Shown here: piece after piece, positions 31,443-37,652 of the stretch
Numbering within the stretch: position 1 is the first letter of the stretch
Layout: every line of letters begins with the position of its first letter
Program-made: the position numbers and the translations under genes
Notes under the pieces: model-generated
Seen by the model: only the letters and a program-made list of their open reading frames with translations
Database searches by the model: none
What the model was told of the DNA's origin: nothing
Source of the DNA: an uncultured delta proteobacterium
Lineage (GTDB): Bacteria > Myxococcota > Myxococcia > Myxococcales > Myxococcaceae
Assembly (NCBI GenBank): GCA_963796055.1
Contig: CAWCKH010000004.1
Location: 3,392,001 to 3,456,000, forward strand
Direction of reading: 5' to 3'
DNA: 64,000 bases

Positions 31443-31514
31443 GGGCGTATAGCTCAGCGGTAGAGCACTGCCTTCACACGGCAGGGGTCGCAGGTTCAAA
31501 CCCTGCTGCGCCCA
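31443..31514 (+). tRNA. tRNA-Val (anticodon CAC), CCA not encoded
   Basis: Acceptor GGGCGTA/TGCGCCC, D arm GCTC..GAGC, anticodon arm CTGCC-TTCACAC-GGCAG, T arm GCAGG-TTCAAAC-CCTGC. Confidence 0.97.
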
Positions 31515-31540
31515 ATGAGTTAGAAGGGCAGAGGGGTCCA

Positions 31541-31562
31541 GGGGTAACAGTGGGGGTAACAG
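31541..31562 (+). repeat. direct repeat GGGGTAACAG x2, resembling tyrosine-integrase arm-type sites
   Basis: GGGGTAACAG-TG-GGGGTAACAG, 26 nt downstream of the tRNA 3' end. Confidence 0.6.
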
Positions 31563-31678
31563 CCGTTCGTCCAGCCTAGGTGACGTAGTTAGCTCGCACA
31601 CACCGCGCAATGGTTAGGCTAGGAGCCCCTGGTCTTGGGACTTCTAGGTCCCGTCGTCGGTTGTCCGGGGAGCCCGCC

Positions 31679-32044
31679 ATGGCAGACGAGACGAGTTCTG
31701 CGTACCGAGTTCAAACCCTCCCCAACGAGGATGGCATCCGCCAGCCAGTCACGTACGCCAACACCTCGCTCATCGTGGGCGACCAGGTTGGTCTCACGGT
31801 CTACTTCTTCTCGGCTCCCGCCGATTCGAACAACCTCCCTGAGAGTGTTCAGGCACTCAAGGCGAAGACACCGGACGGCATCCCGACCGTGACGGTGAAG
31901 CTCGCTCCGGTCGCGAAGCTCTTCATCCCGCATGAGCACGGCAGGACCTTGCTCCAAGCGCTCGCGGAGAACGTCGCGCTTTGGGAGAAGGTACGGCAAG
32001 CCGGAGGCCTGAACCCTGCTGGGGTTGTGGAGAAGGCGGGATGA
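31679..32044 (+). CDS. DUF3467-like small protein
   Basis: YAN...L.VYF...VAKLFIP...LLQALAENV pattern; GGGGAG RBS before ATG 31679; ATGA overlap with the next gene. Confidence 0.65.
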   Translation: MADETSSAYRVQTLPNEDGIRQPVTYANTSLIVGDQVGLTVYFFSAPADSNNLPESVQALKAKTPDGIPTVTVKLAPVAKLFIPHEHGRTLLQALAENVALWEKVRQAGGLNPAGVVEKAG

Positions 32045-32943
32045 AAGGCTCCACAGAACGAGCTGCTCAGCCGGACAGCATTGTCGAGATTCCGTGTTCG
32101 CGTACGTACGAGGAGCCCGAGAGCCAGGAGCAGCTCGCCAGGATCATCCAGAGCTCGATCACGCGACGAGTCGCTCCCTCAGAGCGCACTCACGAGGAGG
32201 TTGCTTCGCTGGCGCTGGGCGGCAGTCCGTCGGAAGTGGTCATCATCGAGACGCCCAAGAGCGAGCCGGAGGAGTGGATCAACCTGCTGCGCAAGACCCT
32301 TGCGACAGCCGAACCCTCGCCTTCCGCGGTGGCGTTCCGCATCATCGATACCTCCAAGAGCGAGCCGGACGAGTGGATCAACCTGTTTCGCAAGAACCTT
32401 GCGATGGCCGAGCCTTCGCCTTCCGCGGTGCCATTCCGCATCATCGAAGCCTCCAAGAGCGAGCCGGAGGAGTGGATCAGCTTGTTTCGCAAGAACCTTG
32501 CGATGGCCGAGCCCTCGCCTGTAGAGGCGGCGTTCCGCATCATCGGGCGCGAGCTACCGACGTATCGGCCGACACCGATCCCTCTGTTCGCTGGAGACTC
32601 ACGCGAGCGTCAACGCGACTTGTTGATGGAAAGCACCCTCAACTCGCTCCCTCAACGCCAGGGCGTTTCGGCCGAAGCAAGTCGGTCAGCGCTCGCGTTT
32701 TGGAAGAGACTTCGCACGTGGATTCCAACCGTCACGCTCCCGCAGACACAGGTGACGCCGGAGGGCGGCATCCACATGGCTTGGCAGCGAGGTGGACGCT
32801 TTGCCAGCATCGACGTGAGTGGCAACGCAGCAGTGGACTGGTTCTTCCAAGACCCAGGAACAGGTGAGGCTGCGAGCGGTGACGACCAGGAGAGCCCCCT
32901 CGGTTTCATCTCGTACCTTCAGAAGCTCTTTGAGCAGAGATGA
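32041..32943 (+). CDS. hypothetical protein with three 33-aa repeats and a C-terminal antitoxin-like domain
   Basis: ATGA overlaps at both ends; C-terminal P.TQVTPEGGIHMAW...SIDVSG pattern. Confidence 0.75.
   Translation: MKGSTERAAQPDSIVEIPCSRTYEEPESQEQLARIIQSSITRRVAPSERTHEEVASLALGGSPSEVVIIETPKSEPEEWINLLRKTLATAEPSPSAVAFRIIDTSKSEPDEWINLFRKNLAMAEPSPSAVPFRIIEASKSEPEEWISLFRKNLAMAEPSPVEAAFRIIGRELPTYRPTPIPLFAGDSRERQRDLLMESTLNSLPQRQGVSAEASRSALAFWKRLRTWIPTVTLPQTQVTPEGGIHMAWQRGGRFASIDVSGNAAVDWFFQDPGTGEAASGDDQESPLGFISYLQKLFEQR
32242..32545 (+). repeat. 99-bp coding tandem repeat x3 (plus start of a fourth)
   Basis: Units start ATCATCG at 32242, 32341, 32440, 32539; peptide II(E/D)xxKSEP(E/D)EWIxLxRKxLAxAEPSPxxxxFR. 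Confidence 0.95.
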
Positions 32944-33431
32944 GTACCTCGGGCACGCCGTTGCCCGATGGATCGAGAGTCCTCCGCCTCCGCAACAAGC
33001 CGGAGATCGAGGCAGAGGAAGGTCCAGTACTGGATCCCGTCATGTTCAGACCGAACAAGGCGGACCTTGATGATGCGAAGGCCAATGGGAACCCAGTCCG
33101 TCTGTCGGACTGGGATCGCTCTCGGACCACCGTTCAGCAGGCAATCGAGTTCCGGACCAGTGACAAGCTACAACAGGTGTTCGAGTTGGGCGTTGACGAT
33201 GTCTCGGAGGTCGCTAGCGCGTTCGAAGCCCGGTGGCCGCCATGGAATGATCGCCTGAGGGTGGTCGAAGACCCGAAGGCCGAATATTGTGTGCGGCCCG
33301 GAGGTGACGGGCACTGCGGAATAGAGGGGCTACACAGGCCTGAGGAGAGGAAGGCAGAGAAAGCCTTCTTCAACACCGTTCGCCTGGAACTTGCTCGTCG
33401 CGTGAAGCTCCTCGATCCCGATGAGTGGTAG
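32940..33431 (+). CDS. putative ADP-ribosyltransferase-fold toxin
   Basis: Motif order RVLR...F.P...LS.W...L.V..V...LRVV.DP...GHCGIEGL...R.ELA resembles small R-S-H ART-like toxins; function inferred. Confidence 0.55.
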   Translation: MSTSGTPLPDGSRVLRLRNKPEIEAEEGPVLDPVMFRPNKADLDDAKANGNPVRLSDWDRSRTTVQQAIEFRTSDKLQQVFELGVDDVSEVASAFEARWPPWNDRLRVVEDPKAEYCVRPGGDGHCGIEGLHRPEERKAEKAFFNTVRLELARRVKLLDPDEW

Positions 33432-33707
33432 CCAGTCGGGGGACTGGTGAGAAGCAACGTCTTCGAACGAGTCCAGCCGAAGAAGCCCTCCATTACGCCA
33501 CACGAAACGCACCACGTCCGCGCCGCTGGTCTTCGGGATGGGCTCGGCGCGGAAGTCCCACACGCTCCAGTCCTGGGGTCCGTACTTCTGGACCGCACGC
33601 TCCATCACGCGTGCGATGGCCGACTCCGGTGTGCCACCTAGCTCGACCGCGTTGGCGTGCTTGATGCCGGTATCTCCGCCCCAGCAATCCCAGCCGAGCA
33701 CACTCAC
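33330..33707 (-). CDS. hypothetical protein
   Basis: GAGGGAG RBS before GTG, protein-like first ~85 aa; 3' end overlaps the convergent ART-like gene. Confidence 0.3.
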   Translation of the reverse strand: MSVLGWDCWGGDTGIKHANAVELGGTPESAIARVMERAVQKYGPQDWSVWDFRAEPIPKTSGADVVRFVWRNGGLLRLDSFEDVASHQSPDWLPLIGIEELHATSKFQANGVEEGFLCLPLLRPV

Positions 33708-33899
33708 CGAAATCTCCCTCCGATTGCGCCTCCGCCTCTAGTCGGGCGGGCTGCCGGTCTGCGAGGAACGGCGTGAATTCTGAATTCCGTAGGATCCGAG
33801 CGTATGGACAGGCTGGAAACTTGCCGCTAGTCTGTACGCCTAGGGCCCAAGCGAGCGACTTCGGTCAGGCCGCCTTCTCCACGGGCCCGGGGGGGACGC

Positions 33900-34802
33900 G
33901 TGGACTGGCGAGCAAAGGTCCTAGGTGCAGCGATCCTCGCGGTGTTCGCGGCAGTGGCCGGCTCGGCCTGCTCATCGGCTCTGGCCCAGGACGGTGAGCT
34001 CACGCTTGAGGACGTCAGAGGCCGGGCATCCGCATTGTCGACCTCTTCTTGCCCGACGGGGGCAGTCAGCCGTGCCACCAACTCAACATCATCGGAAACG
34101 ACTGCCACGACACGACGGGTTTCCCTGTGGCCTGCTGCTTCTACACCGCGTCTCCCTCCCCGACTCAGCTTCAGGGACCGGCGTGCACCGAGTACTCAGG
34201 AACCACCGTCATGATTCAGCAGGTCGGAAAGGGATTCTGCTGTGAGCGCTATGCGCCTGGGTACGGACCAACAGACTGGGTCAGATCGGAGGACCCGAAC
34301 TTGGCCACCCCGTGTGCGTTCTGCGGTGGCGAGACGCCCAACGACAATCAATGCTGCACGCGAGACCGAAACGTCGTGCAGAAGTTTCCAATCGTGAACC
34401 TCGACGACTGTCCAGACCGGGTGCAGATAAAGCCACCGGAACAGACGACGCCCGCCTGCGGGCCAGCGGATGCGGGCGTCTTCACGCGCGCCGTCATTCC
34501 GCAGCGTTTCGGCCCTGTTCCGTTTGAGCCGTCTTGCATTGAGCACGACTACTGCTACAGCACGTGTAGGCGGGACAAGGGGTTCTGCGACCGACAGATT
34601 AACGAACTCCTACGGGCTGCCTGCATGGACGCTTTCGCAGCTCAGATTGAGGCGATCGGGAGGGCCGGCGGCGACCCGAGATCGCTGAGCGCCGTACTCA
34701 ATAGCTGCCTCTACGCGGCTGACAGCTTCTTTGGGGCAGTGGTGAGCAGGGACAAGAGCCTACGACAAGGCGCAGAAGGAGTTCTGCAAGTGCTGCGAAT
34801 GA
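33900..34802 (+). pseudogene. secreted Cys-rich group XII-like phospholipase A2, interrupted by frameshifts
   Basis: Signal peptide in the 33900 frame; PLA2 core CG...F.PSCIEHDYCYSTC...K..CD in the 34049 frame; typical tail AYDKAQKEFCKCCE* in a different frame ending 34802. Confidence 0.75.
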
Positions 34803-35233
34803 CCAGACGAATCCTCTGCCTGCTCCTGCTCGCTGTCGCCTGCAAGGAGGCCCCAATCAGCGGTTCGCCCGACGCTGGCCAATCGAGTCTCGCTGGGAAA
34901 TGGCAGGGCGTTCAGTCGGTCGACCCCAACGGCCAGGGCAGTCTCGCTAGACTAGAGTTACAAGGAGCGCCGGGTGGGCAGGTGCGGGGCGCCTTGGACG
35001 TTTCCTATGGCATGGACGCCAACGACCTCGCCACCATCGGCTTCCTCTCCGGACCTGCCCAGGGCGGCACGTTCATCCGGGGCACATCCTTTCTTCCTGA
35101 TGGCGGTCTGGAGCCTCGTTTGACGATGACGATCACGGTCTCTCAATCCCTCAACCACATCGACTGGGTCGAGCAGCAGCACACCCTCGACGGCGGTCCG
35201 CTACCCATCTACTACCGGATGGACAGACAGTAG
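34799..35233 (+). CDS. lipoprotein, candidate immunity protein for the PLA2
   Basis: MTRRILCLLLLAVAC lipobox; ATG overlaps the reconstructed PLA2 stop (ATGA). Confidence 0.7.
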   Translation: MTRRILCLLLLAVACKEAPISGSPDAGQSSLAGKWQGVQSVDPNGQGSLARLELQGAPGGQVRGALDVSYGMDANDLATIGFLSGPAQGGTFIRGTSFLPDGGLEPRLTMTITVSQSLNHIDWVEQQHTLDGGPLPIYYRMDRQ

Positions 35234-35270
35234 TTCTCACCTCCGCCTGGAACGACGAACCACGACGCGC

Positions 35271-35620
35271 GTGGGAAGAAAGAAGAGCCCCCCAATCCGC
35301 TGCGTGGTCCCGGGCTGCGACCACCTCATCCAGCGCCGGCAATACTGCATCCGGCACTATCGCGAGCGGGTCCTGCCGCGGTGCCGGGTAAGGGGGTGCG
35401 GCCGGCTTCGGCTTCTGCGAGCCCCACTACAGGAACGGCGGCAAGCCGATCCCCGTGAGAGCCAAGCGTAGTGCCGCAACTGGCCCCCGTGTCTTCGCCT
35501 GGAGCCGACTTTACGGTGCCCGTGTTCGAGGGAGAGGCCCGGCGGCTGGGGCTGAGGAACACGGGGATGCTGGCCGAGATCGTCGAGGCTTGGGCCCGAG
35601 CGCGTGACCTGCCCCCGAGC
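35271..35620 (+). pseudogene. frameshifted relic of a CxxxxC..CxxH zinc-finger protein
   Basis: CVVPGC...YCIRHY, then CRVRGC continuing as GFCEPHYR in another frame. Confidence 0.45.
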
Positions 35621-36020
35621 TGTCAAAGCGGCTGCGGCGCACCGCCGCGTCGCGCCGCATCGCCGTCGCCGAGCTGTTGCGCCAGGTGCTGGAGGCGGGG
35701 CTGCCCTGAGCCGCGGGCATCTCGGCGCCATGCCCCGGCCAGTCCCAGCTCGGCTAGTAGCGCAACGTGAACCTTCACATCAGCAGGCCTACGCATCCGG
35801 GGAAGCGCACCGTGCCGCAAGAGATTCGCGCAAATGCGCAGACACTACGTTTTAGCTGGTTATGAGCTGATGTTTGCGCATTTCTTGCACTTCGCGACCG
35901 ACGGCTCGAGCGATTAAGACCAATAAGTATCAATGAAATTGCGGGTCCGGCCTTCGGGGCATGGGAAATGCTGCCAATTTGCGTATATCACCTATGCGCT
36001 GGGCGCAGGGAGGGGTCCCG

Positions 36021-36188
36021 ATGAGGCCTCTAGACCGCGCAGCGGTAGCGGTATCGCTATGCCTGCTCGCTTTGGGCCCTGCGTATGCCGCATCAACGCC
36101 TGGCGTTGCGAGCGCAGACGCTGAGAGCAGCAATCCGCCGACACACTGCGGTTCCTGGGGGTGCCCAATGAGACGACTGACTTTCTAG
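36021..36188 (+). pseudogene. signal-peptide-only remnant of a secreted protein
   Basis: GGAGGGG RBS, MRPLDRAAVAVSLCLLALGPAYA, early stop. Confidence 0.3.
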
Positions 36189-36315
36189 AGGACATCGCCT
36201 TGAAGAGCTTTGTCCACGCCGACACTCTCGGCGAATGCCTGCGCGGGCGCTTCTCTCTTGAAGAATTCGCTTCGTTCGGGAGCCTTGCGTCCTCCTGAAG
36301 AAGCTCGGAGGCATC

Positions 36316-36993
36316 ATGAAAACATCAAAAAAGTCCATGGTGGTTGCGGCTGTCGTTCTTTCGCTCTTCATGCCGGCACGGTCTGCGCTTGCCCAGGTGC
36401 AGCACCTGCCACTCAGCAGGTTCATCGACGTGCAGTTTGAGCAGGCCGCCTGGCAAGATCCTGCGTCGGGCGACACCCTCGTCTTTGATCTCTACGGAGC
36501 GCGCGCCGCGGCCTTCGGCCTTCAGCTCGGCACGACGGTGCAGGGCGGCGTGGACATCCGTGATCTGGGCAATGGCACCGAGCGAGTGACCGTGAACTGG
36601 CAGACGCGGAACGCCGTCTGCGCCGGTCTCAACGCCAATGGCGATGCGGCATTCGGATTCTTCGCCGTCGAGATCGCCGCCGGTGCTCCCGCATCCCTGG
36701 GCCACGGTCACACGCTCATCGAGTTCACCCAGCCCACCGGAAGCCCCATGCCGACCCAGTTCGAGATCTTGAACGGCGTCGGCGGCAGGGTCTGGGAGAA
36801 GACCCTGACCAGCATCATGTGCCAGAACGGAGAGCTCAGGGCCGGATCGGGCTTCCCGGAGGGCACTCGCGGCTTCGCCCAGACGACGCAGACGGCCCTG
36901 CTGTCCACGGGAGTGCCGTCCGGCTGTCCACCCGAGAAGGACGCTGACTGCTTCCCCGCGGAGAAGGTGCAGTTCAAGCCGAACGGCCACTGA
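36316..36993 (+). CDS. secreted hypothetical protein
   Basis: GGAGG RBS, signal peptide ending ALA-Q, beta-rich body with Cys pairs. Confidence 0.8.
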   Translation: MKTSKKSMVVAAVVLSLFMPARSALAQVQHLPLSRFIDVQFEQAAWQDPASGDTLVFDLYGARAAAFGLQLGTTVQGGVDIRDLGNGTERVTVNWQTRNAVCAGLNANGDAAFGFFAVEIAAGAPASLGHGHTLIEFTQPTGSPMPTQFEILNGVGGRVWEKTLTSIMCQNGELRAGSGFPEGTRGFAQTTQTALLSTGVPSGCPPEKDADCFPAEKVQFKPNGH

Positions 36994-37319
36994 GGCTGCC
37001 ACCCAGAAGCGTGAGCTCGCGCGCAGCCGCGGCCCGCTGCCTGCCAGGCCTGCCTCGGGCTCCCAGCCAGCGACGCATCGCCGAACTGGCGCGTGACCGA
37101 CGCCCACTGAGGCTGCGGCCACCGCCACGACGGCCCGGACGAGTGCCGAGGCTTGCGGACGGACGTTGCACGATGCCGATCTCGATCGACGAGCTGCTGT
37201 GCACCAGGCTGCGCACGCCGAAGAGGAGCTCGCTCCACGCCTTGCTCAGTCCATGGATGTCGCGGAGCGGCAGTCGCAGCGGAGCGCCACGGTCGCGAGC
37301 AGCTCCTGGAGCTTTCGAG

Positions 37320-37652
37320 TCAGAGGGTCGGGCAGCGGTGCGTCTCCAGGGCCTGGTCGAGGGCCTCGAGTGAGTCCTGGGTGTACGCCAGCTCCTGCTT
37401 CCAGGCGTCCTTCTCCCAGGCGGCCGCATCCGGCTGCGCGAGCTGGTCGAGCAAGTGGACCTCCTGCTCCGCCAGCGCGGCCTCGGTGTCCCGGAGCTCG
37501 ACACACTGCTCTGACAGGACCGCCACGGTCGCTGCCACGCCGGCGACTGTCTCCCTTTCCGACATCTCCCGAGGCGGAACACTGGCGGCAGGAGGGGATG
37601 ACCCCGTGGGGAGGAGCCCCAAGAGCAGGAGTGGCAGGTACTTCACCTTCAT
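37320..37652 (-). CDS. small secreted helical hypothetical protein
   Basis: MKVKYLPLLLLGLL signal-like start, acidic coiled coil, two Cys. Confidence 0.55.
   Translation of the reverse strand: MKVKYLPLLLLGLLPTGSSPPAASVPPREMSERETVAGVAATVAVLSEQCVELRDTEAALAEQEVHLLDQLAQPDAAAWEKDAWKQELAYTQDSLEALDQALETHRCPTL

Follow-up and report, generated by a model that had tools for sequence, protein, structure and literature searches.

Immediately downstream of a tRNA-Val(CAC) gene in the stretch of DNA analyzed here (64,000 nucleotides from an uncultured member of the Myxococcaceae, hereafter the window), three co-oriented genes are joined by two ATGA stop/start overlaps, at 32041-32044 (genes 1 and 2) and 32940-32943 (genes 2 and 3). 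The reading frames and both overlaps were recovered as described in a first-pass annotation of the sequence, which had proposed a new toxin-antitoxin-accessory defense system at a tRNA island. The features of the locus, in window coordinates, are as follows.

31443-31514, + strand: tRNA-Val(CAC), predicted by ARAGORN; left edge of the variable site
31516-37320, strand not applicable: low-GC variable island holding the three genes, delimited by GC content and by synteny with genus relatives
31679-32044, + strand: gene 1, open reading frame of 121 aa
32041-32943, + strand: gene 2, open reading frame of 300 aa
32041-32625, + strand: N-terminal tail of gene 2, ~195 aa, rich in E/S/P/A and, from this composition, probably disordered
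32241-32545, + strand: three tandem repeats in the gene 2 tail, 33 aa (99 nt) each
32626-32943, + strand: C-terminal domain of gene 2, ~105 aa; conserved partner of gene 3 and putative antitoxin
32940-33431, + strand: gene 3, open reading frame of 163 aa; R-S-H family
32985-32987, + strand: codon of R16, conserved residue of gene 3
33105-33107, + strand: codon of S56, conserved residue of gene 3
33108-33110, + strand: codon of D57 of gene 3, Val in 118/125 family members
33312-33314, + strand: codon of H125, conserved residue of gene 3

The tRNA and its variable flank

The three genes constitute the first cargo behind tRNA-Val, whose 3' end lies 164 nt before the start of gene 1, and their codon usage is indeed unlike that of the host, with GC3 values of 0.76, 0.74, and 0.70 for genes 1, 2, and 3 as compared to 0.92-0.98 for five flanking host genes. 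The GC content of the island is 0.62-0.64, and the genome-wide value is ~0.71 (a host genome of 5.53 Mb in 7 contigs, ~71% GC). The tRNA locus was found in 9 of 12 genus relatives and its flank was compared in 8 of these; in all eight, synteny stops at the tRNA 3' end (31514-31520) and resumes at ~37320 at the earliest, and other DNA occupies the place of the triad. The tRNA island announced in the first pass thus stands as a variable site; nevertheless, no tyrosine integrase was found within the window (0 of the genome's 23 matches) and no duplicated tRNA end (att) near the locus, and an intact integrative element was rejected on both grounds in favor of a hypervariable tRNA flank. A scan of the locus for sigma-70 promoters and terminators returned no match, the chance expectation also being near 0-1.

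Several further features of the island and of the host contig may be recorded. A 125-aa open reading frame (33330-33707, - strand) converges on gene 3, overlaps its end by ~100 nt, and has neither a Pfam nor a PADLOC match. At 33900-35233, a Cys-rich open reading frame runs into a lipoprotein-like one and appears frameshifted with respect to a signal-peptide reading frame at 33900; it matched no family and no PDB entry, and it contains a C..HD.CY motif, which we take to be that of secreted phospholipase A2. Elsewhere in the host assembly (C4:3118970-3121462), nine tRNA genes are clustered, possibly on a mobile element.

The gene 2-gene 3 pair

The R..S..H order first noticed in gene 3 (motifs RVLRL, LSDW, and GHCGIEG) has proven to be that of a large family. 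A profile of four relatives, searched against 1.84 billion representatives, recovered 488 clusters at E<=1e-3, and in an alignment of 125 full-length members out of the best 150, the most conserved polar residues are R16 (124/125), S56 (120/125, with Thr in 5), and H125 (125/125). Their order appears to fit the three catalytic strands of an ADP-ribosyltransferase (ART), the strands having been assigned by eye. The same order (R or H, then S, then H) can be discerned by eye in members of the Tse2-like (PF18648) and DUF952 (PF06108) families, although neither shows HMM or profile similarity to the gene 3 family; in Tse2, R, S, and H are the catalytic residues. Tse2 is an NAD-dependent ART blocked by Tsi2, according to the available portion of the source (PMC6099711). 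It differs from gene 3, which has no secretion context, in being a secreted type VI effector.

None of the three proteins matched the Pfam, NCBIfam, or PADLOC libraries, nor did the 125-member alignment match Pfam or NCBIfam, and a comparison of the family with solved structures (PDB) by sequence gave chance matches only. Profile comparisons with RES (24 sequences), Tse2-like (2), KptA (3), and DUF952 (5) proteins were not significant, known ART families reaching only E 0.008-0.27 among themselves, and the Atlas neighbors of gene 3 are unnamed clusters (0.95) and DUF6098 (0.92), which the Atlas flags as weak evidence. Judged from its sequence, gene 3 probably adopts an ART-like fold. This copy departs from its family at one position, for among the 125 members it alone has Asp57, where 118 have Val. 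A sequencing error was ruled out, as a public contig spans the codon with 0 differences; the substitution may weaken or cripple this copy of gene 3, whose branch is also long (1.62 against a median of 0.42) in a tree of 45 toxins. That tree, which covers 45 of the loci only, includes three poorly filled rows (L041, L043, and L080) and was used just for counting lineages.

Gene 2 ends in a domain of the form P..TPEGGI...W, in which P36 and W50 are conserved in the alignment of relatives. The suggestion, in the first pass, that this domain sits upstream of such toxin-like genes was borne out by a survey of 85 gene-3-relative loci outside the window's genome: once 9 loci with <330 nt upstream had been set aside, the domain was found to end directly before the gene 3 relative in 72 of 76 evaluable loci, and in 42 of 45 when counted as clusters at 70% identity, with 19 pair loci matching by construction because they seeded the partner HMM. 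That HMM, built from 19 relatives with the window left out, matches the gene 2 domain at 5.5e-16; when compared with solved structures by sequence, the partner-domain profile gave chance matches only. The pair occurs in seven named phyla (Acidobacteriota, Myxococcota, Chloroflexota, Cyanobacteriota, Planctomycetota, Armatimonadota, and Bdellovibrionota), yet its distribution is patchy (8/401 phylum genomes and 0/8 genomes of its own genus). That genes 2 and 3 form one functional unit is close to certain, and the C-terminal domain of gene 2 rather likely neutralizes gene 3. Together they are likely a type II toxin-antitoxin unit with an NAD-using toxin, the roles being read from sequence; type II systems usually place the partner first and the enzyme second, with the two genes overlapping.

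The partner domain is preceded by different sequences in different lineages. In five clusters it is fused C-terminally to TPR-type proteins of 640-720 aa directly before the toxin-like gene (L002/L174, L027/L175, L030, L036, and L056, of which L002/L174 is from the unpublished genome G160), and these fusions look as if a sensor had been built in. In an Acidobacteriota clade, the partner is barely more than the bare domain, with a tail of 19-52 aa. A bare pair is seen in Thermoanaerobaculia (L003-L009, L039, L040, L049, and L078), at one fixed site behind a gene labeled by eye as a lolD-like ABC gene, and on account of this fixed place it is taken to be vertically inherited there, not mobile.

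In the window, gene 2 is repeat-bearing, as had been reported. Its three 33-aa repeats are 84-88% alike as 99-nt units, and each contains one W and one or two F, with W79, W112, and W145 at 33-aa spacing; public contigs that are identical or nearly so span repeats 1-2 and repeat 3. The repeats are private to this locus (2 of 50 tail rows, both being this locus), and no counterpart of the tail was found among 87 loci searched. The idea that the repeat arose by duplication of the partner domain's first helix was rejected, the profile of that helix having no match on the repeats.

Pfam annotation of 110 neighbors at 22 pair loci, made without a control set, identified defense-type genes (type ISP and type I R-M, S_4TM, Cap12-TIR, Mrr, SIR2, NACHT, and BrnT) at 6 of the 22 and no defense neighbor at the other 16; transposases or resolvases lie nearby at 5. 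Phage and plasmid collections gave no match for the three relatives tried, and viral contigs gave none. A putative anti-phage role is somewhat favored for the module.

The first gene and its slot

Gene 1 had been called DUF3467-like, a designation that survives in weakened form. No Pfam match was obtained, including at the DUF3467 (PF11950) cut-off and for SecB, no close relative was found among 16 candidates scored, and the one PF11950 match in the host genome is another gene. Nevertheless, an hhalign comparison with 25 DUF3467 proteins gave E 2e-4 over 25 residues and a second colinear block, the profile score (28.2) lay above 40 of 40 column shuffles (maximum 20.0), and in the Atlas gene 1 scores 0.89 against a cluster of which 43% is DUF3467. 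Gene 1 may be described as remotely DUF3467-like. Comparisons of the DUF3467 and TIGR04255 profiles with solved structures by sequence gave chance matches only. Set side by side, SecB was found in none of 201 Myxococcota genomes, nor in the host genome, whereas 246 of 301 genomes of the phylum carry canonical DUF3467, nearly always as a single copy; a chaperone function for DUF3467 in these bacteria is conceivable.

A search of gene neighborhoods has upheld the conserved pair and its coupled upstream slot more than the particular triad. Of 42 pair clusters, 5 end too soon upstream, which leaves 37 evaluable; in our reading of these, a translationally coupled third gene occupies the slot in 24, in most cases between -26 and +4 nt from the partner start. 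TIGR04255, an uncharacterized NCBIfam family of about 250 aa, fills the slot in 12 clusters (9 + 2 by NCBIfam-based or follow-up assignment and 1, L081, because it resembles L080), proteins of ~220-340 aa with no family assigned fill it in 9, and small proteins that look by eye like DUF3467 fill it in 3 besides this locus. The first gene is absent from 13 clusters, comprising 8 without any and the 5 partner-TPR fusions. The nine larger proteins, typically ~230 aa, had no NCBIfam match to TIGR04255 (profile E 0.05), and the three small ones, labeled by eye, were not significantly similar to DUF3467 (E 0.26, 0.03, and 0.29). Most clusters thus have a coupled third gene, but the exact DUF3467-like triad is rare.

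Partners preceded by a first gene have the longer tails, with a median of 88 aa over 29 loci (this locus included; range 6-195). At the 19 loci lacking such a gene the median is 29 aa and the range 9-269, its upper end stemming from a spurious upstream frame. A nominal p of 7e-6 overstates this contrast, since 13 of the 16 rows labeled 'none' fall in a single clade and the label can be explained by 4 changes on the 45-toxin tree, and short tails (6-56 aa) occur at some loci having a slot gene.

Because no profile similarity between gene 1 and TIGR04255 is detectable, the two slot families are linked by position only, and the idea that gene 1 is half a TIGR04255 protein was likewise rejected (E 0.23). 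TIGR04255 also heads other toxin-antitoxin-looking pairs. Among 30 loci fetched, 22 have downstream genes, 21 of which look by eye like an antitoxin followed by a toxin, or like a toxin; the pair described here is found at 2 of the 30. The downstream genes presumably encode an HTH protein with a W.QG-motif protein, PIN, HNH, or HicBA-like proteins, and others. Throughout these loci (L121-L150), the gene after TIGR04255 is nearly always antitoxin-like and encodes a long N-terminal tail, and a toxin-like gene of changing family comes next, the combination of an HTH protein and an unnamed W.QG-motif protein being seen at about ten. They may be regarded as a candidate family of three-gene defense systems in their own right.

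There is good reason to think that gene 1 belongs to the module; that it acts as a chaperone or sensor on the gene 2 tail is a more tentative suggestion, made by analogy with the systems considered below.

Known systems and a proposed mode of action

The pair resembles PDC-M32, a PADLOC phage defense candidate, in which a gene A ending in P..(Y)PTPEGG...W is joined by an ATGA overlap to a gene B of 125-160 aa with the R..S..H order; in three true PDC-M32 loci compared, layout, overlap, and motifs are alike. It differs from PDC-M32 in that PDC-M32A is ~375 aa, has a folded-looking N-terminal part, and is accompanied by no third gene. Modest profile links were obtained at E 6e-4 (gene 3 family and PDC-M32B) and 4e-3, each above 40 of 40 shuffles; the PDC-M32A HMM weakly matches 6 of 10 partner relatives (E 4e-5 to 0.015), and the PDC-M32B HMM matches 1 of 125 toxin relatives (E 0.011). 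The window's own proteins match neither HMM at E<=1, the host genome has no PDC-M32B match, and the PDC-M32B profile gave chance matches only when compared with solved structures by sequence. The pair would thus appear to be a distant cousin of PDC-M32 and not a member by its HMMs. In the available section of the source, such candidates are presented as predictions for future study, and M32 is not named there (Payne et al., bioRxiv 10.1101/2024.01.29.577857). In the literature searched, PDC-M32 is tabulated only, and the supplements (PDC tables S3-8) may annotate it. At one locus (L090:296-1438), a sigma-70/ECF-like domain is joined in a single protein to a domain of the PDC-M32A type, and at another (L089) the A gene is split into two frames.

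With CmdTAC and HigBAC, the locus shares three genes, a putative ART toxin, a small third protein, and an antitoxin-like protein whose tail is long, of low complexity, and marked by regularly spaced aromatic residues. The order is mirrored, however, with the third gene first and the toxin last, the tail is N-terminal here and C-terminal there, and the third gene has no SecB match. In the available text of PMC11618068, CmdT, whose system includes a SecB chaperone, is described as an ART of the H-Y-[E,D,Q] type and as requiring CmdA for folding and toxicity, whereas the present family is of the R-S-H type and has no PADLOC or NCBIfam match. For HigBAC, the available text of bioRxiv 10.1101/2024.02.24.581848 describes a disordered tail whose four aromatic residues, at a loose spacing of 30 aa, dock into pockets of a SecB-like tetramer, and a phage protein that competes for these pockets. 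The likeness to TAC systems claimed in the first pass extends to the coupled third gene in the slot and stops at the toxin class (H-Y-E in CmdT), the gene order, and the SecB chaperone. By the tests run, which found no SecB homology by sequence and placed the repeats N-terminally with the conserved domain last, the triad is not a TAC member; it may, by analogy, work like one. Swaps of first gene and tail have reportedly been performed for HigC and CmdTA.

The available portions of PMC11980606, PMC13069673, PMC12457610, PMC12133291, PMC6099711, 10.1101/2025.01.08.631726, and 10.1101/2020.07.21.169896 do not describe the architecture of the triad, and broader searches, which covered papers outside subscription, yielded no description of it, no literature on TIGR04255, and nothing of bearing on DUF3467. 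The earlier remark that the architecture was not recognized as a described one agrees with these searches and with the absence of a PADLOC match, and is to be qualified by the distant relationship of the pair to PDC-M32.

Overall, we assign a probability of roughly 0.5 to a toxin-antitoxin pair gated by a swappable, chaperone- or sensor-like first gene, in mirror order to TAC. The three proteins would be made together by virtue of the observed ATGA overlaps. Gene 3 would be a small ART-fold enzyme whose site is formed by Arg, Ser, and His and which the gene 2 C-terminal domain likely keeps inactive, while an oligomer of gene 1 would bind the aromatic 33-aa repeats and keep the gene 2 protein stable, a step drawn by analogy with the aromatic motifs ~30 aa apart that the available text describes in the HigA ChAD (bioRxiv 10.1101/2024.02.24.581848). 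Removal of gene 1 by a phage protein or by stress would lead to loss of the tailed antitoxin, and the freed toxin would use NAD+ to modify nucleic acid or protein, or would drain NAD+, such that the infected cell would be arrested. Relatives without a first gene, which are observed as plain pairs, with short tails, or as TPR fusions, would dispense with this gate or, in the fusions, carry a built-in sensor. A broader and more doubtful extension would see here a second class of toxin-antitoxin defense under chaperone control, the mirror image of the first and outside the SecB world. Its non-SecB first gene (TIGR04255 or an offshoot of DUF3467) would attach to an N-terminal addiction tail of the antitoxin, serve as the phage sensor, and be combined with a variety of warheads, the uncharacterized R-S-H ART family among them.

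A simpler account, which we consider unlikely, would reduce the module to a two-gene, PDC-M32-like toxin-antitoxin pair, with gene 1 a co-transcribed passenger or a nucleic-acid-binding regulator and not a chaperone, the tail a neutral linker, and the repeats a local expansion. Such an account would explain why the first gene is missing from 13 of the 37 clusters, why PDC-M32 itself has two genes, and why gene 1 has no close relative and the repeats are private to this locus; moreover, the near single-copy state of canonical DUF3467 suggests a housekeeping-derived fold, and its strand-strand-strand-strand-helix pattern presumably also suits PC4/Whirly-type folds. It is at odds with the ATGA overlap of gene 1 and the foreign codon usage that it shares with the pair, with a slot filled in 24 of 37 clusters, mostly close to the partner start, and with a tail length that tracks slot occupancy.

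It is improbable that the gene 2 domain is instead an activator or docking domain, through which a variable N-terminal sensor (tail, TPR, or sigma-like) switches on a gene 3 that is inactive alone, given that the Acidobacteriota partner is a near-bare domain and that a partner-first, overlapping order is generally that of type II systems. Its C-terminal fusion to TPR proteins in five clusters, the fusion of a PDC-M32A-type domain to a sigma-70-like domain, and the dependence of CmdT on CmdA for folding and toxicity (available text of PMC11618068) would suit such a switch. The family may also be as described while this particular copy is decaying and no longer working, as suggested by an Asp57 that is unique to this protein and real in an independent contig, by the long branch, by the lack of an integrase nearby, and by the frameshifted appearance of a neighboring island gene; with three open frames, both overlaps intact, and R16, S56, and H125 kept together with the G-x-x-G-H-C-G-I-E-G-L motif, decay is nonetheless given little credence.

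In weighing the novelty of the gated pair, the strong linkage of genes 2 and 3 and the swappable first slot are set against the kinship with PDC-M32 and the doubt over this copy. If nothing beyond the pair holds, the gain would be modest, one more entry among candidate toxin-antitoxin pairs. If the gated reading is true, a widespread, unnamed family of R-S-H ART-like toxins (488 clusters) and its partner domain would be added to toxin-antitoxin biology, the untested candidate PDC-M32 would gain a mechanism to test, and chaperone-gated defense would be extended to phyla lacking SecB (0/201 Myxococcota searched). Should the mirror-image class prove real, TIGR04255 and DUF3467 would receive their first function, and this locus, whose tail consists of three perfect aromatic repeats, would provide its cleanest test case.
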